From: a virus
Taxonomy: Duplodnaviria; Heunggongvirae; Uroviricota; Caudoviricetes
Length of the DNA stretch: 37,921 bases
Reading direction: 5' to 3' (one strand)
Virus record (IMG/VR): IMGVR_UViG_2713896908_000005
How positions within the stretch are numbered: position 1 is the stretch's first letter; every line of letters starts with the position of its first letter. The translations under genes and the position numbers were made by a program. Under the pieces are notes generated by a model that saw only the letters and a list, made by a program, of their open reading frames with translations, ran no database searches and was not told the DNA's origin. Below, piece after piece: positions 2,723 through 14,433 of the stretch.

Positions 2723-3652
2723 ATGGCAAACACTGCTGAGATATTCAATTTTCCAGTGCCGGATGCGGCACAAAAGGAGCCGCGCGTGGCAGATCTCGAT
2801 GATGGTTATACGCGCATTGCAAATGAGTTGCTGGAAGCTGTGATGCTGGCCGGATTAACACAGCACCAGCTTCTGGTCTTTCTGGCTGTCATGCGCAAAA
2901 CATATGGCTTTAATAAAAAACTGGATTGGGTTAGCAACGAGCAACTTTCCGAATTAACCGGGATATTGCCGCACAAGTGTTCTGCTGCAAAAAGTGTTCT
3001 GGTAAAGCGTGGGATTTTTATTCAGAGCGGGCGGAATACCGGCATTAATAATGTGGTCAGTGAATGGTCAACATTACCCGAATCAGGTAAGAAAAATAAA
3101 GTTTACCTGAAAGAGGTAAATTTACCTGAATCAGGTAAAAAAAGTTTACCCAAATCAGGTAAAGGCGTTTACCCGAATCAGGTAAACACAAAAGACAAAC
3201 TAACAAAAGACAATATAAAACCTTTTTCGTCCGAGAATTCTGGCGAATCCTCTGACCAACCAGAAAACGATCTTCCTGTGGTGAAACCGGATGCTGCAAT
3301 TCAGAGCGGCAGCAAGTGGGGGACAGCAGAAGACCTGACCGCCGCAGAGTGGATGTTTGACATGGTGAAGACCATCGCGCCATCAGCCAGAAAACCGAAT
3401 TTTGCAGGGTGGGCTAACGATATCCGCCTGATGCGTGAACGTGACGGACGTAACCACCGCGACATGTGCGTGCTGTTCCGCTGGGCATGCCAGGACAACT
3501 TCTGGTCCGGTAACGTGCTAAGTCCGGCCAAACTCCGCGACAAGTGGACCCAGCTCGAAATCAACCGAAACAAGCAACAGGCTGGCGTGACAGCCGGCAA
3601 ACCAAAACTCGACCTGACGAACACTGACTGGATTTACGGGGTGGAGCTATGA
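2723..3652 (+). CDS. O: replication initiator, lambda O-like
   Basis: Start chosen at ATG 2723 (GGAGG SD) rather than ORF start 2633; N-terminus MANTAEIFNF...ADLDDGYTRIANELLEA...LAVMRKTYGFNK and C-terminus LDLTNTDWIYGVEL parallel lambda O as I recall it; iterons lie inside the gene. Confidence 0.85.
   Translation: MANTAEIFNFPVPDAAQKEPRVADLDDGYTRIANELLEAVMLAGLTQHQLLVFLAVMRKTYGFNKKLDWVSNEQLSELTGILPHKCSAAKSVLVKRGIFIQSGRNTGINNVVSEWSTLPESGKKNKVYLKEVNLPESGKKSLPKSGKGVYPNQVNTKDKLTKDNIKPFSSENSGESSDQPENDLPVVKPDAAIQSGSKWGTAEDLTAAEWMFDMVKTIAPSARKPNFAGWANDIRLMRERDGRNHRDMCVLFRWACQDNFWSGNVLSPAKLRDKWTQLEINRNKQQAGVTAGKPKLDLTNTDWIYGVEL
3074..3186. repeat. origin-of-replication iterons (5 copies of an approx 19-bp unit) inside the O-like gene
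   Basis: Units TTACCCGAATCAGGTAA (3074-3090), TTTACCTGAAAGAGGTAAA (3102-3120), TTTACCTGAATCAGGTAAA (3121-3139), TTTACCCAAATCAGGTAAA (3145-3163), TTTACCCGAATCAGGTAAA (3168-3186); each unit is an inverted repeat (TTTACC..GGTAAA); followed by an A-rich tract 3187-3235. Confidence 0.85.
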
Positions 3653-4350
3653 AAAACATCGCCGCACAGATGGTTAACTTTGACTGTGAGCAGATGCGCC
3701 GGATCGCCAACAACATGCCGGAACAGTACGACGAAAAGCCACAGGTACAGCAGGTAGCGCAGATCATCAACGGTGTGTTCAGCCAGTTACTGGCAACTTT
3801 CCCGGCGAGCCTGGCTAACCGTGACCAGAATGAACTGAACGAAATCCGCCGCCAGTGGGTTCTGGCTTTCCGGGAAAACGGGATCACCACAATGGAACAG
3901 GTTAACGCTGGAATGCGCGTAGCCCGTCGGCAGAATCGACCATTCCTGCCATCACCCGGGCAGTTTGTCGCCTGGTGCCGGGAAGAAGCATCTGTTAACG
4001 CCGGGCTGCCAAACGTCAGCGAGCTGGTTGATATGGTTTACGAGTATTGCCGGAAGCGTGGACTGTATCCGGATGCAGAGTCTTATCCGTGGAAATCGAA
4101 CGCGCATTACTGGTTGGTTACCAACTTGTACCAGAACATGCGGGCCAATGCGCTGACTGACGCGGAATTACGGCGCAAGGCTGCCGATGAACTGACCTGT
4201 ATGACAGCGCGAATTAACCGTGGTGAGACGATACCTGAACCAGTAAAACAACTTCCTGTTATGGGCGGTAGACCTCTAAATCGTGCACAGGCTCTGGCGA
4301 AGATCGCAGAAATTAAAGCTAAGTTCGGACTGAAAGGAGCAAGTGTATGA
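3649..4350 (+). CDS. P: replication protein P-like (DnaB helicase loader)
   Basis: 233-aa product (MKNIAAQMVNFD...KAKFGLKGASV) closely matches lambda P as I recall it, including length; start overlaps the O stop. Confidence 0.9.
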   Translation: MKNIAAQMVNFDCEQMRRIANNMPEQYDEKPQVQQVAQIINGVFSQLLATFPASLANRDQNELNEIRRQWVLAFRENGITTMEQVNAGMRVARRQNRPFLPSPGQFVAWCREEASVNAGLPNVSELVDMVYEYCRKRGLYPDAESYPWKSNAHYWLVTNLYQNMRANALTDAELRRKAADELTCMTARINRGETIPEPVKQLPVMGGRPLNRAQALAKIAEIKAKFGLKGASV

Positions 4351-4649
4351 CGGGCAAAGAGGCAATTATTCATTACCTGGGGACGCATAAGAGCTTCTGT
4401 GCACAGGACGTTGCCGCGGTAACAGGCGCAACCGTAACCAGCATAAATCAGGCTGCGGCTAAAATGGCGCGGGCAGGAATCCTGGTCGTTGATGGTAAGG
4501 TCTGGCGAACGGTGTATTACCGGTTCGCTACCAGAGAAGAACGGGAAGGAAAGGTGAGCACGAATCTGATTTTTAAGGAGTGTCGCCAGAGTGCCGCGAT
4601 GAAACGGGTATTGAGGGTATATAAAAGAACATCAATGGGTACACAATGA
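4347..4649 (+). CDS. ren: Ren-like protein
   Basis: MTGKEAIIHYLGTH...VWRTVYYRFATREEREGK matches my recollection of lambda Ren; ATGA overlap with the P stop. Confidence 0.8.
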   Translation: MTGKEAIIHYLGTHKSFCAQDVAAVTGATVTSINQAAAKMARAGILVVDGKVWRTVYYRFATREEREGKVSTNLIFKECRQSAAMKRVLRVYKRTSMGTQ

Positions 4650-4716
4650 TGAAACAGGTGAGTTGAGTTCAAACTGTAGTACAATTCTCTCCAGTTTGAA
4701 CAGGAAAGAATATGTT

Positions 4717-5049
4717 ATGAACCCTTATATTTATCTTGGTGGTGCAATACTTGCAGAGGTCATTGGTACAACCTTAATGAAGTTTTCAGAAGGTTTTACA
4801 CGGTTATGGCCATCTGTTGGTACAATTATTTGTTATTGTGCATCATTCTGGTTATTAGCTCAGACGCTGGCTTATATTCCTACAGGGATTGCTTATGCTA
4901 TCTGGTCAGGAGTCGGTATTGTCCTGATTAGCTTACTGTCATGGGGATTTTTCGGCCAACGGCTGGACCTGCCAGCCATTATAGGCATGATGTTGATTTG
5001 TGCCGGTGTGTTGGTTATTAATTTATTGTCACGAAGCACACCACATTAA
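4717..5049 (+). CDS. emrE: small multidrug resistance (SMR) efflux transporter EmrE
   Basis: Start at internal ATG 4717; 110-aa product MNPYIYLGGAILAEVIGTTLMKFSEGFTRLWPS... with four hydrophobic helices and the conserved membrane-embedded Glu (AEVIGT); matches E. coli EmrE as recalled. Confidence 0.9.
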   Translation: MNPYIYLGGAILAEVIGTTLMKFSEGFTRLWPSVGTIICYCASFWLLAQTLAYIPTGIAYAIWSGVGIVLISLLSWGFFGQRLDLPAIIGMMLICAGVLVINLLSRSTPH

Positions 5050-5080
5050 AAATAATTTGTTTCTAAACGACTAAAATATG

Positions 5081-5114
5081 GAGGCTCTTATATTTATATG
5101 AGCCTCGTTTTATG
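5081..5114 (+). terminator. intrinsic terminator after emrE
   Basis: Perfect 7-bp stem GAGGCTC (5081-5087) / GAGCCTC (5100-5106), 12-nt AT loop, then T-rich run gttttatgcttttt. Confidence 0.6.
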
Positions 5115-5304
5115 CTTTTTGTTAATGTCTTTATTTTTTATGTATTCTTTTGTGCTTTCAAGATTATGGCGTAAGAAAATTGCAATACGATTATTGTTGT
5201 ATATTCAAGATAATGTGACCTTAATTGTCTTTTTAAATAAAAATTAAACAAAAATTATATCCCACCACTAAGGTTTATAAAAGCATACGTTAGCAGGTGT
5301 CACC

Positions 5305-6831
5305 ATGAAAAAAGCCATAGCATATATGCGATTTTCATCACCAGGTCAGATGTCTGGCGACTCATTAAACCGACAGAGAAGACTTATTGCTGAATGGTTA
5401 AAGGTAAATGGTGATTATTATCTTGATACCATAACATATGAAGATTTAGGATTAAGTGCATTCAAAGGAAAGCATGCACAATCAGGAGCTTTTTCGGAAT
5501 TTTTAGATGCTATAGAGCATGGTTATATATTGCCAGGAACTACATTGTTAGTTGAAAGTCTGGACAGACTTTCAAGAGAAAAAGTCGGTGAAGCGATTGA
5601 ACGTCTGAAATTGATTTTGAATCACGGTATTGATGTTATAACTCTTTGCGACAATACAGTCTATAATATTGACTCTTTGAATGAGCCATATTCATTAATA
5701 AAAGCCATACTTATAGCACAAAGGGCAAATGAAGAAAGCGAGATAAAGTCAAGTCGGGTTAAATTATCATGGAAGAAAAAACGGCAGGATGCACTGGAAT
5801 CAGGTACGATTATGACGGCGTCTTGTCCGAGATGGCTCTCCTTAGATGACAAAAGAACGGCTTTTGTTCCAGACCCCGACAGGGTGAAAACTATTGAGCT
5901 AATTTTTAAACTCAGGATGGAAAGGCGCTCATTGAATGCAATAGCCAAGTATTTAAATGATCATGCTGTAAAGAATTTCTCAGGAAAAGAAAGTGCATGG
6001 GGACCTTCTGTAATTGAAAAATTATTAGCGAATAAAGCTCTGATAGGTATATGCGTACCTTCATATCGTGCAAGAGGGAAAGGGATAAGTGAAATCGCTG
6101 GCTATTATCCCAGAGTCATATCAGATGATTTGTTTTACGCTGTACAGGAAATTCGGTTGGCACCTTTTGGTATTAGCAATAGTAGCAAGAATCCTATGCT
6201 AATAAATCTACTTCGAACAGTTATGAAGTGTGAGGCTTGTGGTAATACCATGATTGTTCATGCGGTATCTGGAAGTTTGCATGGCTATTATGTTTGTCCG
6301 ATGAGAAGATTACATCGATGTGACAGGCCATCAATAAAAAGAGATTTGGTTGATTATAATATCATTAATGAATTGCTTTTTAATTGTAGCAAAATTCAAC
6401 CAGTTGAAAACAAGAAAGATGCTAATGAAACTTTAGAGTTAAAAATTATTGAGCTTCAGATGAAAATTAATAATTTAATCGTTGCATTGTCTGTCGCGCC
6501 TGAAGTTACCGCTATAGCAGAGAAAATAAGACTATTAGATAAGGAATTACGAAGGGCTTCGGTATCATTGAAAACTTTGAAGAGTAAAGGTGTAAATTCA
6601 TTCAGTGATTTTTATGCTATTGACTTAACCAGTAAAAATGGACGAGAGTTATGCCGTACACTTGCCTATAAAACATTCGAAAAAATCATAATTAATACGG
6701 ATAATAAAACCTGTGATATCTATTTTATGAATGGCATTGTTTTTAAACACTATCCTTTAATGAAAGTAATATCCGCCCAGCAGGCGATAAGTGCTCTCAA
6801 ATATATGGTTGATGGTGAGGTTTATTTTTGA
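5305..6831 (+). CDS. ybcK: large serine recombinase (YbcK-like)
   Basis: 508 aa; N-terminal resolvase-type catalytic domain (AIAYMRFSSPGQ with candidate nucleophile Ser, later LDRLSR), long C-terminal extension with Cys cluster (CEACGNT...YYVCPMRRLHRC) and coiled coil; AT-rich, follows emrE as in DLP12. Confidence 0.8.
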   Translation: MKKAIAYMRFSSPGQMSGDSLNRQRRLIAEWLKVNGDYYLDTITYEDLGLSAFKGKHAQSGAFSEFLDAIEHGYILPGTTLLVESLDRLSREKVGEAIERLKLILNHGIDVITLCDNTVYNIDSLNEPYSLIKAILIAQRANEESEIKSSRVKLSWKKKRQDALESGTIMTASCPRWLSLDDKRTAFVPDPDRVKTIELIFKLRMERRSLNAIAKYLNDHAVKNFSGKESAWGPSVIEKLLANKALIGICVPSYRARGKGISEIAGYYPRVISDDLFYAVQEIRLAPFGISNSSKNPMLINLLRTVMKCEACGNTMIVHAVSGSLHGYYVCPMRRLHRCDRPSIKRDLVDYNIINELLFNCSKIQPVENKKDANETLELKIIELQMKINNLIVALSVAPEVTAIAEKIRLLDKELRRASVSLKTLKSKGVNSFSDFYAIDLTSKNGRELCRTLAYKTFEKIIINTDNKTCDIYFMNGIVFKHYPLMKVISAQQAISALKYMVDGEVYF

Positions 6832-7352: not shown

Positions 7353-7625
7353 GTGAAGGAGCGCAGTAACAGGACATTTGAAGCCCGTTACTACCTTCAA
7401 AACAGCAATCTACAAACTGTGCTCGAACAGGGAATGGTGATAAGCAGAGACGCGTTAGAAAACTATGAAGCTGGAAATCTGATATCCGACATCCTGCCAC
7501 AGCAATCACCTGAAGATGCGGTACTAAAAATGGTTGACTGTCTCAAGCGCCTTGGAGCTGCTACCGAAGCTAATTTTAAAAACAATAAGGATGAAAATGT
7601 GGATCCCGAAAACTACGTTGTGTAA
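7353..7625 (+). CDS. hypothetical ORF, possibly the 3-prime piece of a frameshifted gene
   Basis: 90-codon ORF with GTG start and no clear SD; the reading frame continues upstream and two other frames carry adjacent open stretches (see finding). Confidence 0.2.
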   Translation: MKERSNRTFEARYYLQNSNLQTVLEQGMVISRDALENYEAGNLISDILPQQSPEDAVLKMVDCLKRLGAATEANFKNNKDENVDPENYVV

Positions 7626-7769
7626 CGTAAGGTTAAATGAGGCTATTAAATGTTGTGATATCAATAGATATATATAGAGTAATTTTCGTTATAATTAACT
7701 GTTCTGGGATATCGGACTATGATGGTCTCCAGAATTGAGAATATTTATCAACTTAATGATAGAGGGACT

Positions 7770-8036
7770 ATGAAAATTTACAGCCTTGGTGAAGAGACAA
7801 TCAATAGCATTGTTGAAGAAGATAAAAAATTGTCTGAGCAGGTGCAGATTATTGACGATTATATCGTTATCAATGTTGCTTATGAATACAACATCCCGCT
7901 TAGTACATGTTCAACACATCAGCAAATTTTGAACTGGGTGTGGCACTTAACTGAAAAAACATGGATGACACAAAATGTTACTCGTCGCTTCATTGAAGTA
8001 GCTTGTGGATATCACAAGCTAGACTATCGCCAATGA
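7770..8036 (+). CDS. hypothetical small protein (88 aa), AT-rich cargo gene
   Basis: Start at internal ATG 7770 with AGAGGGA SD; AT-rich unlike neighbouring nin genes; followed by a 10-bp perfect hairpin. Confidence 0.4.
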   Translation: MKIYSLGEETINSIVEEDKKLSEQVQIIDDYIVINVAYEYNIPLSTCSTHQQILNWVWHLTEKTWMTQNVTRRFIEVACGYHKLDYRQ

Positions 8037-8078
8037 TATTCAATTTTTGATTTTTTAGTATCAACCTTCCATAATAAT

Positions 8079-9631: not shown

Positions 9632-9716
9632 AGTCAGAGATAACAATCAACTAATACTGTTTTGTTGATTTTTGCTTGTAATTGGCGTTCTGGTCTGATT
9701 TTTGTGGAGTAAGTTG

Positions 9717-10067
9717 ATGCGTGATATGTATGAAGTATTGGACCGCTGGGGAGCATGGGCTGCAGCAGATAACAGTGGCGTGGACTGGCAGCCGATAGCA
9801 GCAGGCTTCAAGGGGCTTTTACTTCATGGCAAAAAGTCCCGGATTCAGTGTGATGATGACGAAGGCATTATGATAGACAGTTGTGTGGCTCGGTTGAGAA
9901 AGTATAAACCAGAGGAATATGAGCTAATCATAGCTCACTTTGTCATTGGTATCTCATTACGCACTATTGCCAAGAAGAGAAGATGTTCAGATGGCACGAT
10001 TAGAAAGGAATTGCAAACTGCAATTGGTTTTGTAGAGGGGATTACGAGCGTTATGGCATGTAAATAA
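9717..10067 (+). CDS. late-gene antiterminator Q-like
   Basis: Start at ATG 9717 (GGAG SD); MRDMYEVLDRWGAWAA...IAAGFKGL...CSDGTIRKELQTA resembles the Q antiterminator family of DLP12/phage 82 type as recalled; lies between the nin and lysis regions. Confidence 0.75.
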   Translation: MRDMYEVLDRWGAWAAADNSGVDWQPIAAGFKGLLLHGKKSRIQCDDDEGIMIDSCVARLRKYKPEEYELIIAHFVIGISLRTIAKKRRCSDGTIRKELQTAIGFVEGITSVMACK

Positions 10068-10073
10068 AAGTTA

Positions 10074-10095
10074 AAAGCCACCGTAGTGGCTTTTA
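10074..10095. terminator. bidirectional intrinsic terminator-like hairpin immediately after Q
   Basis: AAAAGCCAC (10074-10082) cgta GTGGCTTTT (10087-10095): GC stem flanked by an A-tract on one side and a T-tract on the other. Confidence 0.6.
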
Positions 10096-10273
10096 ACTTT
10101 TTAGGATTGTGCAGGTAATGTTTTGTTCAATTTAGTAAAGAAGTTAGATTGGCTTGTTACAGTGCGTCGACTCTTTCCAGAAGTACTCAACTGAAAGAAA
10201 TCATTGATGCTTTTGGGTTGAGTTCTTTCATAGGCTTGCTTAAGTGACATGTGTTCCCCTTGTCTATTTGTTG

Positions 10274-11557
10274 CTATGACCGCGAAAAGTAGTGATGGTT
10301 CAGTTCTTTTGCAAAATAGTGCTTACGTTTAACCCAGATAAAACCATCAGCTTTAGAAATGATTGCAACATCTATGGGGCCTCCCACTGTTTCAGTATCA
10401 TCGGAGACCTTGCGCTTGAAAGCGGTTAAATTTACTAATGATTCAGCCATATAAGCTAAATCTTGCTTGGGTAAAAACTCGATCATATTTACGACTTTGT
10501 CAACATAGTTTTCTCGGACAAAGCTATCAATACGCCCCTTGCAATCGGAAACAGTTCTGCGCACTACATCAACTATAGCATCCTTAGCTCCTTCGATATC
10601 TGAAGTAGGCACCAAATCTGTGATTACTGAATCAATACCGTCAAGTAAATCGACGATAGAACGTTGATACTCAGCATGAAGATTTTGGATAAGATGTGAA
10701 CTAGCTCCTTGCATGAAAGCAGAAACTTCATCCTCTTGCGCAAAAGGAGTCACGCCGCAATTAGGAGTGATGCAGCACTTGTCAGCATCTGTAGTTTTCC
10801 TGATTTTATCATTAAAGAAGCCACAAACTTCATATGATAATACTTTAGGGTAATAGTCTTTATCGCCATAACCTGCAATCACAATCCCAGAGACGGAACC
10901 GATATCACTTTGCTTGCATATCATAGCTGCCAAAACATCACTAACTACTTTTGTCAACTGTGGAGTTATGGATATTGGATCAAAGTCACTAAACTTTTGA
11001 GCAATGATGCGTTGGGCAACTGATGAAGCATAGGTTTGGGCTGCTTGTTCATCATCCGGAGTAAAACCATCAAAGTAATTAATATCAGATAATTTTGTAA
11101 GGAGATCGTTGCAATAATTTGTAAGGTCTGTAACAAATTGATTCTTATTGAAGTTAACGAAATATGTTGGTTCGAGACCTTCAGAAAAAGCATCAACAAG
11201 CATGCTGAATACAATCTCGCTCAGGAAGTGATAAAGATGAGCCTCACGCATACCTGGTGTGATGATTGATTTAGCCGACTGTAGATAATTGAAGAAATCC
11301 TCAGCATATTCCTCCAAAGAGTCAAAACATTTAGAGCCTAAATCCTTTCTATAAGCCTTGATGATAAGCTCCCATGGAGCTGTGCAGAGATCACCAGTTC
11401 CATATACCATCAAACCTACAGGATGATGTTTAGTCAGAGCGAAAAGCTTTTCAGCGCCATTATAGATTTTATGTTTGCCGCCTCCAGAAATTGTTACAGC
11501 TGAATCTGCGGCTAAAGCTACTGCGGTCTTGTTAAATACGGCTATTTCTGCTGTCAT
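10274..11557 (-). CDS. uncharacterised 427-aa cargo protein on the opposite strand between Q and the lysis cassette
   Basis: Long minus-strand ORF, markedly AT-rich relative to flanking phage genes; own sigma70-like promoter and a terminator hairpin downstream; no signal peptide, no Walker A, no family recognised by eye. Confidence 0.8.
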   Translation of the reverse strand: MTAEIAVFNKTAVALAADSAVTISGGGKHKIYNGAEKLFALTKHHPVGLMVYGTGDLCTAPWELIIKAYRKDLGSKCFDSLEEYAEDFFNYLQSAKSIITPGMREAHLYHFLSEIVFSMLVDAFSEGLEPTYFVNFNKNQFVTDLTNYCNDLLTKLSDINYFDGFTPDDEQAAQTYASSVAQRIIAQKFSDFDPISITPQLTKVVSDVLAAMICKQSDIGSVSGIVIAGYGDKDYYPKVLSYEVCGFFNDKIRKTTDADKCCITPNCGVTPFAQEDEVSAFMQGASSHLIQNLHAEYQRSIVDLLDGIDSVITDLVPTSDIEGAKDAIVDVVRRTVSDCKGRIDSFVRENYVDKVVNMIEFLPKQDLAYMAESLVNLTAFKRKVSDDTETVGGPIDVAIISKADGFIWVKRKHYFAKELNHHYFSRS

Positions 11558-11572
11558 TTTTTACATAGGGTT

Positions 11573-11600
11573 TATATATTGTGTAATGAGAAAAATACAA
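11573..11600 (-). promoter_or_regulatory. putative sigma70 promoter of the 427-aa gene
   Basis: On the minus strand: TTGTAT (rc 11595-11600) -N16- TATATA (rc 11573-11578), about 15 nt upstream of the ATG at 11557; no strong SD. Confidence 0.4.
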
Positions 11601-11666
11601 AAAAATTAACGCGTACGCAAAAATTCTTGTAATCTGTTAAGAGTGGTTGCTTCGCCACACAGCTTA

Positions 11667-11696
11667 AACCCGCCGTCGAGCGGGTTTTGTCGTTTC
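11667..11696 (+). terminator. tR'-like intrinsic terminator hairpin upstream of the holin gene
   Basis: AACCCGC (11667-11673) cgtcga GCGGGTT (11680-11686) followed by TTTTGTCGTTT; position corresponds to where lambdoid phages carry pR'/qut/tR'. Confidence 0.45.
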
Positions 11697-11839
11697 TGGG
11701 CTTTGGTATTCGTTGGGCTTGGTCTATCTAGCTCTTATCCATTGGCTCGGCTTCTTTTACGTTTCCGCTTCTGATTTGCGGTTCGTGGTACTCCCTCAAT
11801 TTGCACCTCTTGTATCGGCGAGGTGAGAGATAACTACAA

Positions 11840-12166
11840 ATGCCTCATAACCCAAATACCTGGCTGGAGTTGGTCCAGAGCTGGTGGCGTGGAGACACAC
11901 CGCTGGGCGCAGTGATTATGTCGATTGTTATGGCTGGTTTGCGCATTGCCTATTTTGGCGGTGGTGGCGGCTGGAAGCGAAAAACACTCGAAATTCTACT
12001 CTGTGGCGCTCTGACGCTGACTTTTGCATCCGCTCTTGAGTATGTCGGATGGCCTAAATCACTATCTGTTGCCATTGGTGGTGGGGTGGGGCTGATCGGT
12101 GTTGATGCTATTCGTGGGGCTGCAATGAGAGTAATCGGTAACAAGTTTGGTGGCTCTAAGGAGTAA
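11840..12166 (+). CDS. holin (three predicted TM helices)
   Basis: 108 aa; hydrophobic segments LGAVIMSIVMAGLRIAYF, LEILLCGALTLTFASAL, LSVAIGGGVGLIGVDAI and a charged C-terminus; immediately precedes the endolysin. Confidence 0.65.
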   Translation: MPHNPNTWLELVQSWWRGDTPLGAVIMSIVMAGLRIAYFGGGGGWKRKTLEILLCGALTLTFASALEYVGWPKSLSVAIGGGVGLIGVDAIRGAAMRVIGNKFGGSKE

Positions 12167-13273: not shown

Positions 13274-13646
13274 AACTGCTCTGTTATACACTGAAGTTAA
13301 CGCAGCGGCTAAGCACTCAGCAGCAGGACACCGTGTAGAGGCAACGGAAGAGGCCAGAAATATACAGCAGACTATTAACCATATTCCTGGTGACTCTGTT
13401 GAGCGCGGTATGCATAAGAAATACAAACGTACAATTTGAAGTGGTATATTTTTCTTGTTAGTAGATGAATATAATATACCACACAGAATACGATATAATT
13501 ATTGCTCATGCTTACCTAAATATGAAAAACAATAAAGTTATAAGTAGACAAGTGTTTTGTTACTTTTAATAATTGATGTGATGTATATATTAAGATTGAA
13601 AAATTTAATCATTCTTTCCACATATAAATTAAGTGGTTCCCTTAGC

Positions 13647-13675
13647 TTGTCATTTTTGATGATAAGTGAGAGAAT
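13647..13675 (+). promoter_or_regulatory. putative promoter of the three-gene AT-rich cassette
   Basis: TTGTCA (13647-13652) -N17- GAGAAT (13670-13675), preceded by TG (extended -10-like); 25 nt upstream of ATG 13701. Confidence 0.3.
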
Positions 13676-13700
13676 ATGAACATTATATGATGGAGATAAT

Positions 13701-14012
13701 ATGTCAAACATAAAAATCAAACAAGCTATTGAAAAGATTGCGGAGTTCAGAGCAGCATCTGCTGCGATGGCTGATGCTCACATGGTTCTTATTACAGATC
13801 TATTGAACTCAATTGAGGATATCCGCAAAAACTCTGGTGATAATCTCTCTGAGTTTGAAAAAGGACAGGTTGCTCTCTACATAAAAATTAGCCCAGTTGT
13901 GAAAAATGGAATTTCGAGTATTGAAAAATATAATGAGTCTTTAAGTTCAGACTATGTTGAGGCTATGAACTCCTTATCTAAAATTGCGGGAGGGAATTCA
14001 AATGTCGATTGA
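13701..14012 (+). CDS. cassette gene A: hypothetical 103-aa acidic helical protein
   Basis: ATG with GGAGA SD; AT-rich; stop overlaps start of gene B by 11 nt. Confidence 0.6.
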   Translation: MSNIKIKQAIEKIAEFRAASAAMADAHMVLITDLLNSIEDIRKNSGDNLSEFEKGQVALYIKISPVVKNGISSIEKYNESLSSDYVEAMNSLSKIAGGNSNVD

Positions 14013-14388
14013 AGATGTTGGAAGCATCCTTGATAGATTAAAAGTAGCCAGGATCGAAAATAAAAAAATTGAAGAGTCAGCTGGAAAAGCAGAGGAAAAT
14101 GCTGTTAACTCTAAGCATACTGATGGTAAAACACGAAGCGCCTTAACTATTACGTTTCTCTGGTTCTTTTTTTTCCTTCTTATTTTTAGCTGTCTTTTTG
14201 TTCTTTGGTATAATAATTCTGTTGTGAATTGGGCTTTAGAGTTAAAGAGCAAAGGTGTTGATGATTACGTTCAATATTTAAAGCCACTCGAGCTGGAAAA
14301 GGTATTGTCAATAATGATTACTGCCCTTGGTACTTCATTAGGATTTATAATTGGGTATTATTTTAAGGATAAAGAAAATCATTCTTAA
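14002..14388 (+). CDS. cassette gene B: hypothetical 128-aa membrane protein with two predicted TM helices
   Basis: Start taken at ATG 14002 (GGGAGGG SD) rather than 13984; hydrophobic segments ALTITFLWFFFFLLIFSCLFVLWY and VLSIMITALGTSLGFIIGYYF. Confidence 0.6.
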   Translation: MSIEDVGSILDRLKVARIENKKIEESAGKAEENAVNSKHTDGKTRSALTITFLWFFFFLLIFSCLFVLWYNNSVVNWALELKSKGVDDYVQYLKPLELEKVLSIMITALGTSLGFIIGYYFKDKENHS

Positions 14389-14433
14389 TATAGAGTTATC
14401 TCTAAAGATAACGAATTTTAATAGGAGGGCAGA

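Follow-up and report, generated by a model that had tools for sequence, protein, structure and literature searches.

The 37,921-nt viral sequence IMGVR_UViG_2713896908_000005 (Caudoviricetes; this whole stretch is called the window in the following) carries an operon in the interval from the antiterminator gene Q to the lysis genes, consisting of a long AT-rich gene and a small gene downstream of it. In our reading, to which we assign a probability of roughly 0.5, this locus is a two-gene, horizontally mobile conflict module on a lambdoid prophage, acting in anti-phage exclusion or abortive infection. The reading builds on the membership of the large protein in PMI-4, a family of proteasome homologs, on its predicted fold and conserved catalytic residues, on a conserved partner gene, and on the occurrence of the operon on mobile elements and in a cargo hotspot. 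An original prediction, made from the DNA sequence, had described the large gene as an undescribed single-gene system. What it had observed was largely confirmed, whereas its interpretation was right in part (cargo, enzyme, candidate defence) and wrong in part. The operon is composed of the following elements:

10274..11557, minus strand: PMI-4 gene, 427 aa, ATG start, predicted to encode a proteasome-beta-like N-terminal-nucleophile (Thr) hydrolase with two helical insertions
10101..10250, minus strand: small partner gene for the 49-aa basic protein MSLKQAYERTQPKSINDFFQLSTSGKSRRTVTSQSNFFTKLNKTLPAQS; the open reading frame (ORF) begins 24 nt past the PMI-4 stop codon
10255..10261, minus strand: Shine-Dalgarno-like AAGGGGA as read from the sequence, 4 nt upstream of the ATG of the small ORF
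10066..10101, both strands: bidirectional intrinsic terminator with a 16-bp perfect stem, a 4-nt loop and U-runs on each strand

The 427-aa ORF is present exactly as originally predicted, its translation containing the N-terminus MTAEIAVFNKTAVALAADSAVTISGGGKHK and the internal segment GIVIAGYGDKDYYPKV, and the gene is indeed more AT-rich than its surroundings, with a GC content of 0.36–0.41 vs. 0.45–0.55 in the upstream Q/RusA region and 0.48–0.53 in the lysis genes. The bidirectional terminator, which had likewise been predicted, folds with –20.4 (plus) and –22.7 (minus) kcal/mol (z = –6.2 and –8.8), and none of 200 shuffled sequences was equally stable. It abuts the stop codon of the small ORF, not that of the PMI-4 gene, and no terminator was found in the interval between the two genes. 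Judged by its position, the hairpin would terminate transcripts in both directions, those of the PMI-4/partner operon (minus strand) and those of Q (plus strand).

The large protein as a member of the PMI-4 family

The PMI group ("Proteasome homolog with Multiple Insertions") belongs to 22 new proteasome-homolog families described in 2021, and PMI-4 was the most populous of them with 501 sequences from most bacterial phyla, Euryarchaeota and phages (Fuchs, Alva & Lupas, Bioinformatics 2021; PMC8665760). PMI-4 proteins carry a long insertion after H1/H2 and another one between H3/H4, with none at S3/S4; the PMI insertion sites were predicted to hinder ring and double-ring formation (PMC8665760). 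The representative of the catalogue, HDY66466.1 (PMC8665760), is identical to our homolog P0126, to which the window protein aligns by BLASTP with 36% identity over residues 1–425 (E = 7e-89). Based on this full-length identity, the window gene is a PMI-4 member. Its protein shares the length of about 430 aa, the lack of a propeptide and both insertion sites with the published family, and at the protein level no difference from it is apparent. The view of the original prediction that the protein could not be placed in any family is thereby superseded. Today, the family comprises more than 6,000 clusters at 90% identity and 3,266–5,950 clusters at 50% identity, and all 150 listed representatives except for one 340-aa fragment are about 417–457 aa long.

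In direct scans, the 427-aa protein gave no significant match in Pfam, NCBIfam, PADLOC or the PDB sequences, and its sole match in PHROGs was phrog_5990, a family of "unknown function." Across 40 members no Pfam family recurred among the weak matches and none of the members obtained a Pfam hit, as was also reported by the definers of the PMI families, who found no significant Pfam proteasome match (PMC8665760). Thus, the profile and PADLOC searches that had been suggested along with the original prediction stayed empty, while structure prediction and fold search, suggested there as well, pointed to a proteasome-type fold. In the searchable literature, including the papers citing the 2021 catalogue, there was no functional study of PMI-4, of phrog_5990 or of proteasome-like or N-terminal-nucleophile (Ntn) hydrolase defence.

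The predicted structure features a four-layer alpha-beta-beta-alpha core of strands S1–S11 with flanking helices H1–H4. Ordinary proteasome subunits are its best PDB matches, and in the search with the predicted fold, proteasome beta subunits outscore connectase; no solved structure from the PMI-4 family was found. Modelled helices cover residues 62–73 and 81–94, followed by helices within 101–214 (first insertion, about residues 96–219), then residues 275–283, followed by helices within 287–360 (second insertion, about residues 286–355), and finally residues 364–385. Residues 23–33 are modelled as a short low-confidence loop, and no S3/S4 insertion is seen. An AF2 model derived from a shallow 40-sequence alignment (pLDDT 69.6) left the conserved core unresolved and was not used for the fold search. 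The ideas of a porin or membrane protein and of an NTPase had already been excluded in the original prediction, and nothing found here contradicts this.

Residues M1-T2, D18 and G229/G231 are invariant in alignments of 86 and 96 sequences, down to about 31% identity, and the same conservation extends to S19-A20 next to D18, to K30 and to most of V391-G392-G393-x-I395-D396-V397-A398; at K37 and G48, the 86-sequence alignment shows no variation and the 96-sequence one at least 90% conservation. Thr and Asp are spaced by 16 residues and, together with the EKLF segment, resemble Thr1, Asp/Glu17 and Lys33 (KKLF) of proteasome beta subunits. Consistently, the family profile aligns D18 with E17 and K37 with K33 of the Thermoplasma beta subunit in a PDB search, at E about 1. 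For the oxyanion-hole Gly47 there are two candidate equivalents, G48 (100%) and G53 (99%), both in the right strand/loop, and Ser129 of the proteasome G-S-G loop is changed to Tyr/Phe. According to the model, the N-terminal segment would form strands S1/S2 with the Thr nucleophile and the Asp, and GIVIAGYG would form the G-x-G loop. The original hint at an enzyme fold, which had been drawn from these two segments, therefore fits a proteasome-type Ntn hydrolase. Since residue 1 aligns with profile position 1 in nearly every one of the 150 representatives listed, PMI-4 has no propeptide, and removal of Met1 by methionine aminopeptidase would, by analogy to HslV, expose the Thr, which is a permissive P1' residue.

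Conservation is restricted to the core, with 91 columns that are at least 90% conserved vs. none among the 194 insert residues. Such a contrast is the pattern of a fixed enzymatic engine combined with fast-evolving recognition surfaces. Judged by the predicted fold and by catalytic residues that are fully conserved, PMI-4 would most likely hydrolyse specific substrates by means of a Thr nucleophile. From 20S proteasome beta subunits and HslV (MEROPS T1), it is set apart by two helical insertions at ring-contact positions, which add about 200 residues, and the assembly of a barrel is doubtful. Furthermore, HslVU has a dedicated AAA+ unfoldase as neighbour, whereas none is encoded in the window and none is conserved among the 274 ORFs within two genes of 80 genome loci; the 20S proteasome and HslV are housekeeping systems, whereas PMI-4 is mobile and strain-variable.

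A conserved small partner gene

For the small ORF, 83 distinct loci from species-representative genomes were surveyed, drawn from nearly all bacterial phyla and from several lineages of archaea, and ORFs of 40–90 aa on the same strand that start –48 to +40 nt from the PMI-4 stop were counted as partners. Such an ORF occurs in 78 of the 83 loci, compared to 125 of 466 ends (27%) of other long ORFs in the same loci, and likewise in 53 of 53 distinct viral loci. A profile made from clear cases detects the partner in 54–55 loci, all matches among 9,442 six-frame small ORFs lying at this very position, and independent gene callers have annotated it in Klebsiella prophages, a Methanoperedens archaeon and a metagenome contig. 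The median partner has 59 aa and an isoelectric point of 9.7. In 48 of the 83 loci the partner ORF overlaps the PMI-4 stop codon, which suggests that it is often translationally coupled to PMI-4. The notion of a single-gene system consequently has to be given up, as the partner gene found at 10101..10250 is conserved across bacteria and archaea. An interpretation of the small ORF as frameshift or readthrough extension of PMI-4 was rejected, because its start offsets fall in both alternative frames; readthrough is also countered by the many partners with their own ATG and Shine-Dalgarno sequence and by the start of the window copy past the stop codon.

The common form of the partner features a basic N-terminus, a ..S..EF.K.FFP.. 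motif with a Pro that none of 30 diverse sequences lacks, and an amphipathic helix at the C-terminus. Enterobacterial partners, including that of the window, follow the pattern M.LKQ..[YF]...QPK...DFF plus NFF..L around a variable middle and are devoid of the Pro of the aromatic-Pro motif; in this subfamily, indels are in frame and the ratio of nonsynonymous to synonymous substitution rates (dN/dS) is 0.08–0.59. The divergence of PMI-4 and partner is correlated, with a mirror-tree Spearman coefficient of 0.37 that was reached in none of 500 permutations. A search from the partner side yielded 63 clusters of stand-alone "hypothetical proteins" of 52–70 aa, with no Pfam domain in any of them, and five diverse partner sequences matched no Pfam family at E up to 1. 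In an independent look-up of four partner proteins, the genes of three proved to overlap with PMI-4 in full length, and that of the fourth follows a remnant. In a Campylobacterota locus (two contigs of metagenome-assembled genomes, L185:1754-2123 and L186:2308-2677), the partner is intact and only the last ~46 PMI-4 codons are found upstream; this locus is either decayed, or the partner was kept on its own.

Taken from these sequence comparisons, the unit is a two-gene operon, and the partner is dedicated to PMI-4, if not absolutely universal. The discoverers of PMI-4 found no informative gene context for the family (PMC8665760), and the ~50-residue partner appears to have been unnoticed before. 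PMI-4 itself was already known, as a family orphaned in function; what appears to be new is the conserved partner gene, together with the context of hotspot and satellites.

In adjacency and coupling, PMI-4 and its partner match type II toxin-antitoxin (TA) systems. The operon could accordingly be an addiction module, in which the free PMI-4 protease would be toxic and neutralised by the small, probably labile, basic partner, thereby stabilising the mobile element, with phage defence as a by-product. The compact and translationally coupled layout of two genes would fit this idea, as would their co-divergence, a scattered and context-independent distribution as known from TA cassettes and the frequent TA or mobile-element neighbours (Zeta, YdaT, ParE, MqsA, HipA). 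However, the large gene precedes the small one, an order found in a minority of type II TA systems, the partner has no recognisable DNA-binding or antitoxin domain (Pfam, E up to 1), and the Campylobacterota locus retains the partner while the enzyme is lost. Moreover, and different from type II TA systems, intact PMI-4 loci without a partner exist: in a Vibrio/Photobacterium clade with the PMI-4 N-terminus MTAEVAVYN, the apparently intact gene runs straight into an intrinsic terminator (L023:7281-7400, L024:7284-7400, L027:7254-7370). The partner is therefore not universally required and not an indispensable antitoxin, and we consider addiction an unlikely explanation, albeit one to be kept in mind.

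Another option could be a peptide-processing or ligase system, in which the enzyme would recognise a single specific sequence and the partner would be the substrate that is cleaved to an active peptide or transferred as a tag, similar to the reaction of connectase. This archaeal monomeric proteasome homolog is a sequence-specific ligase confined to methanogens, and its substrate is MtrA, not a dedicated small co-encoded protein. Connectase carries a two-helix lid between S3 and S4 and is devoid of helices H1/H2, whereas PMI-4 retains H1/H2 and the model shows no such lid, residues 23–33 forming the short loop described above. The better fold scores of proteasome beta subunits, the loss of the motif Pro in enterobacterial partners including that of the window, and the existence of the partner-less clade also argue against a ligase, which makes this option rather improbable.

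The cargo slot and its exchange

The following elements surround the operon:

9702..10067, plus strand: antiterminator Q gene (PF06530, E = 6.2e-44), left border of the cargo slot
11573..11600, minus strand: candidate sigma-70 promoter of the operon, –35 TTGTAT (11600-11595), N16, –10 TATATA (11578-11573)
11592..11650, plus strand: conserved block with A-tract (11592-11605), TTAACG (11606-11611), palindrome GCGTACGC and TGTAAT (11628-11633)
11666..11687, plus strand: tR'-like intrinsic terminator with an 8-bp stem (5 GC pairs) and a T-rich tail, between the conserved block and the holin gene
11840..12166, plus strand: lambda-family holin S gene (PF05106, E = 5.7e-25), right side of the slot

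The 140 nt before PMI-4 were compared in an alignment of lambdoid prophages, between which the PMI-4 genes have an identity of only 61–86%. A block of ~55 nt proved to be nearly invariant in these prophages (L014, L097, L117–L131), followed by a hairpin that is kept through compensatory changes in the relatives. From its sequence, we infer that the block at 11592..11650 represents the late promoter region pR' with the Q-utilisation (qut) site, featuring TTAACG as –35 and TGTAAT as –10 and pointing away from the operon, while its perfect palindrome GCGTACGC could alternatively be the operator for another regulator. The stability of the terminator at 11666–11687 is not exceptional by itself (z = –1.3). 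In lambdoid phages, Q is expected to be followed by pR'/qut and then by tR'. Since a promoter-like block and a terminator intervene before the holin gene, the operon would be located between Q and its cognate late promoter, and it is probably upstream of pR', divergent from it and convergent on Q. An antisense orientation to the late transcript, as originally proposed, is thus probably wrong. Homology to the prophages of the E. coli H3 type spans Q, the operon and the conserved block and ends exactly at 11688, beyond which these prophages carry a methyltransferase, tRNAs and then the holin. Homology to SfII/SfIV begins at about 11596–11635, and the holin gene of the window has 91–95% nucleotide identity to that of SfII/SfIV.

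A sigma70-like promoter of its own, also part of the original prediction, could be supported only with respect to the presence of the motif at 11600..11573. TTGTAT-N16-TATATA agrees with the consensus at 7 of 12 positions and went undetected in the promoter scan, and its –35 is located within the block conserved among the relatives, whereas its –10 is not conserved. The conserved block is better explained as part of the divergent late promoter, the A/T tract perhaps being an UP element of pR'. Transcripts from the candidate promoter would start with a very short, A-rich leader devoid of a Shine-Dalgarno site, and window 11558–11572 lacks the purine-rich GAAGAAG-type stretch found before the ATG in relatives; judged from this difference, the translation efficiency of the window copy may deviate from that of its relatives.

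Its opposite strand, AT-rich composition and own terminator characterize the operon as moron-like cargo between Q and the lysis genes, as originally proposed, and this is corroborated by the exchange of cassettes in the slot. In sibling prophages, the Q-to-pR' slot contains unrelated two-gene cassettes, always on the opposite strand and of similar size (about 1.5 kb):

Slot equivalent to window 10068-11600, cassettes of sibling prophages: L183:987-2398, L184:985-2522 and L103:845-2459

E. coli H1827/12 encodes here a KwaB-like protein (PF16162, 32 bits, above cut-off) together with a 173-aa protein, E. coli H22 proteins of 311 and 189 aa, and SfII the proteins SfII_49 and SfII_50; no family was found for the 311+189-aa and the SfII_50+SfII_49 cassettes. 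The KwaB-like and SfII_49/50 cassettes share slot, strand, two-gene layout and approximate size with the PMI-4 operon, while the proteins are unrelated. As positional analogues only, they indicate that the slot exchanges cargo, and the sibling cassettes are candidates for further uncharacterised cargo systems.

The same slot and strand are occupied by a 63%-identical PMI-4 operon in Klebsiella prophages. In E. coli the gene is rare (9 of 5,426 complete genomes): a 98%-identical copy is carried by strain H3 (L013, NZ_CP010167.1 2818268-2832237) and eight other strains, mostly enterotoxigenic E. coli or human isolates. This copy resides in a degraded prophage next to ydfJ, in which the holin has a frameshift and truncations affect the lysozyme and tail-fibre genes while PMI-4 is intact, which is consistent with selection for the cargo after phage decay. 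Beyond lambdoid prophages, the operon was found directly after the primase in Serratia satellites resembling P4 or phage-inducible chromosomal islands (PICI), in a small integrase-GPA element of Alteromonas, beside a type I restriction-modification (R-M) system in Vibrio, between R-M and TA genes in one case and adjoining transposases in one archaeal case. Homologs are present on at least 163 IMG/VR contigs and in 13 deposited phages, nine of which are records of Streptococcus phages or satellite phages. In the Streptococcus satellite phages Javan103/106/109/198/421/468, elements of ~10 kb, PMI-4 (29–31% identical) is located at the extreme right end, a position reminiscent of the accessory and defence cargo of PICI-like elements.

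Among the 274 flanking ORFs of the 80 genome loci introduced above, there was no conserved neighbour (AAA+, nuclease or sensor). As a raw tally, strong PADLOC matches in this set comprise SoFic (four times), type I, II and IIG R-M, dCTP deaminase, an Argonaute-associated (Aga) nuclease, MzaA, HEC-06, PD-T4-6 and several PDC candidates; Fic, Zeta, YdaT, CI and Q families are also found.

The distribution also bears on a physiological function, i.e., a regulatory or quality-control protease carried as neutral or host-beneficial cargo, with the partner as chaperone or inhibitor. Small dedicated chaperones and inhibitors of the proteasome, such as Ump1/POMP and PI31, exist in eukaryotes, the family is ancient, with members in bacteria and archaea, and many environmental members are embedded in housekeeping genes. 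Nevertheless, the patchy and strain-variable occurrence, as reflected by the E. coli count, the carriage on prophages, satellites and integrative elements, the AT-rich composition compared to the host phage and the hypervariable inserts argue for an accessory, horizontally exchanged function, and we regard a physiological role as improbable.

Finally, the operon could function in the cycle of the carrying phage, e.g., by processing a protein of phage or host in the lytic phase or by counter-defence against host immunity. Its location in a phage genome beside the late control region and the viral contigs, phages and satellites with homologs would be in line with this, and other small proteasome homologs, PPH and AAH, have been reported on phages (PMC8665760). 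Yet, most family members reside in non-phage chromosomal contexts, archaea included. Opposite in strand to all neighbouring phage operons, equipped with its own terminator and probably positioned upstream of pR', the operon would lie outside the early and late transcription units, and the interchangeability of the slot with unrelated cassettes means that it is dispensable for the phage. A role in the phage cycle is therefore very improbable.

Apart from the slot, two further AT-rich regions of the window were noted. The block at 13450–14400, just past the lysis genes, is very AT-rich (GC 0.26–0.35) and contains the plus-strand ORFs 13701-14012 (103 aa) and 13984-14388 (134 aa, with the hydrophobic stretch FLWFFFFLLIFSCLFVLWY), for both of which Pfam gave nothing significant; the block resembles a further cargo (moron) slot, located past the lysis cassette and before the packaging genes. 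A patch at 7600–8050 (GC 0.33), upstream of the NinB/RusA/Q region, includes ORF 7719-8036 (105 aa), for which a Pfam search gave no match.

Proposed mode of action and implications

From the features of the locus we infer a peptidase activity, a regulatory role of the partner, a trigger and a defence phenotype, which could be combined as follows. The operon would be transcribed away from the late promoter toward the terminator it has in common with Q. Following removal of Met1, the catalytic Thr would be exposed as in HslV, and Asp18 and Lys37 are predicted to complete the triad. Considering their positions at the proteasome ring-contact sites and the prediction for PMI families (Fuchs et al., 2021; PMC8665760), the two long, fast-evolving helical insertions most likely block the assembly of a barrel and could instead act as a substrate-selecting or sensing lid. 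The small basic partner (about 50–60 aa) would be made in step with the enzyme and in stoichiometric amounts by translational coupling. Due to this coupling, the co-divergence and the exclusive adjacency, it most likely binds the enzyme as a latch or inhibitor that keeps a specific protease latent, or is a pro-substrate. An infection cue would then free the protease, leading to cleavage of a defined host or phage protein and to protection of the lysogen population from other phages. We favour such a conflict role because the module is self-contained, exchanged cargo in hotspots with known defence genes. With the KwaB-like protein in the same hotspot, the carriage by satellites and the R-M, SoFic and TA neighbours, a function in defence or abortive infection, which had also been put forward in the original prediction, is a reasonable candidate hypothesis.

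Proteases are part of several anti-phage modules, including Lit, the gasdermin-activating proteases, CalpL/Lon-SAVED and Craspase. By analogy, a common logic with PMI-4 could be a latent, specific protease that is switched on by infection, and carriage in hotspots and on mobile elements is shared as well. In contrast, these modules have no sequence relation to PMI-4 (PADLOC negative), and PMI-4 has no sensor or signalling partner of the type found in cyclic-oligonucleotide-based antiphage signalling systems (CBASS) or CRISPR systems. To our knowledge, none of these modules uses a proteasome-type Thr nucleophile.

Several points weigh against the proposed conflict module. The partner is missing in the Vibrio/Photobacterium clade (L023, L024, L027), many environmental PMI-4 loci are situated among housekeeping genes without an obvious island, and a PADLOC-DB v2.0.0 search with the PMI-4 protein retrieved no family at E up to 1. 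Sequence profiles do not reach the proteasome family (no match to Pfam PF00227, PDB profile at E about 1), and hhalign of the family profile against the single E. coli HslV sequence was not significant; the proteasome-type assignment is based on the predicted structure and the motif pattern. With a weak promoter and no purine stretch before the ATG, expression in the lysogen is a prediction from sequence, and the searchable literature contains no experimental phenotype for PMI-4.

Going one step further, PMI-4 and its partner could constitute a hitherto unrecognised, pan-prokaryotic anti-phage (abortive-infection) system, the first immune system built on a proteasome-type Thr protease, in which the hypervariable helical inserts would sense the invader and the ~55-aa partner would serve as latch or pro-effector; we put this forward tentatively, as a possibility we do not favour over its opposite.

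Unannotated small ORFs, as the partner described here, can conceal key context of seemingly "contextless" families. Among the 22 proteasome-homolog families, PMI-4 has the most members and is yet an orphan in function. A dedicated, co-evolving partner in about 95% of the loci and the occurrence as hotspot and satellite cargo render this family tractable as a two-component system in E. coli. If the enzyme was a specific protease or ligase acting on the partner, the pair might provide a new tool for protein engineering, as connectase did. In case of a defence role, a proteasome-type Thr protease would represent a new enzymatic principle in prokaryotic immunity, which would assign a function to the largest orphan family of proteasome homologs and connect the proteasome fold with immunity in prokaryotes.

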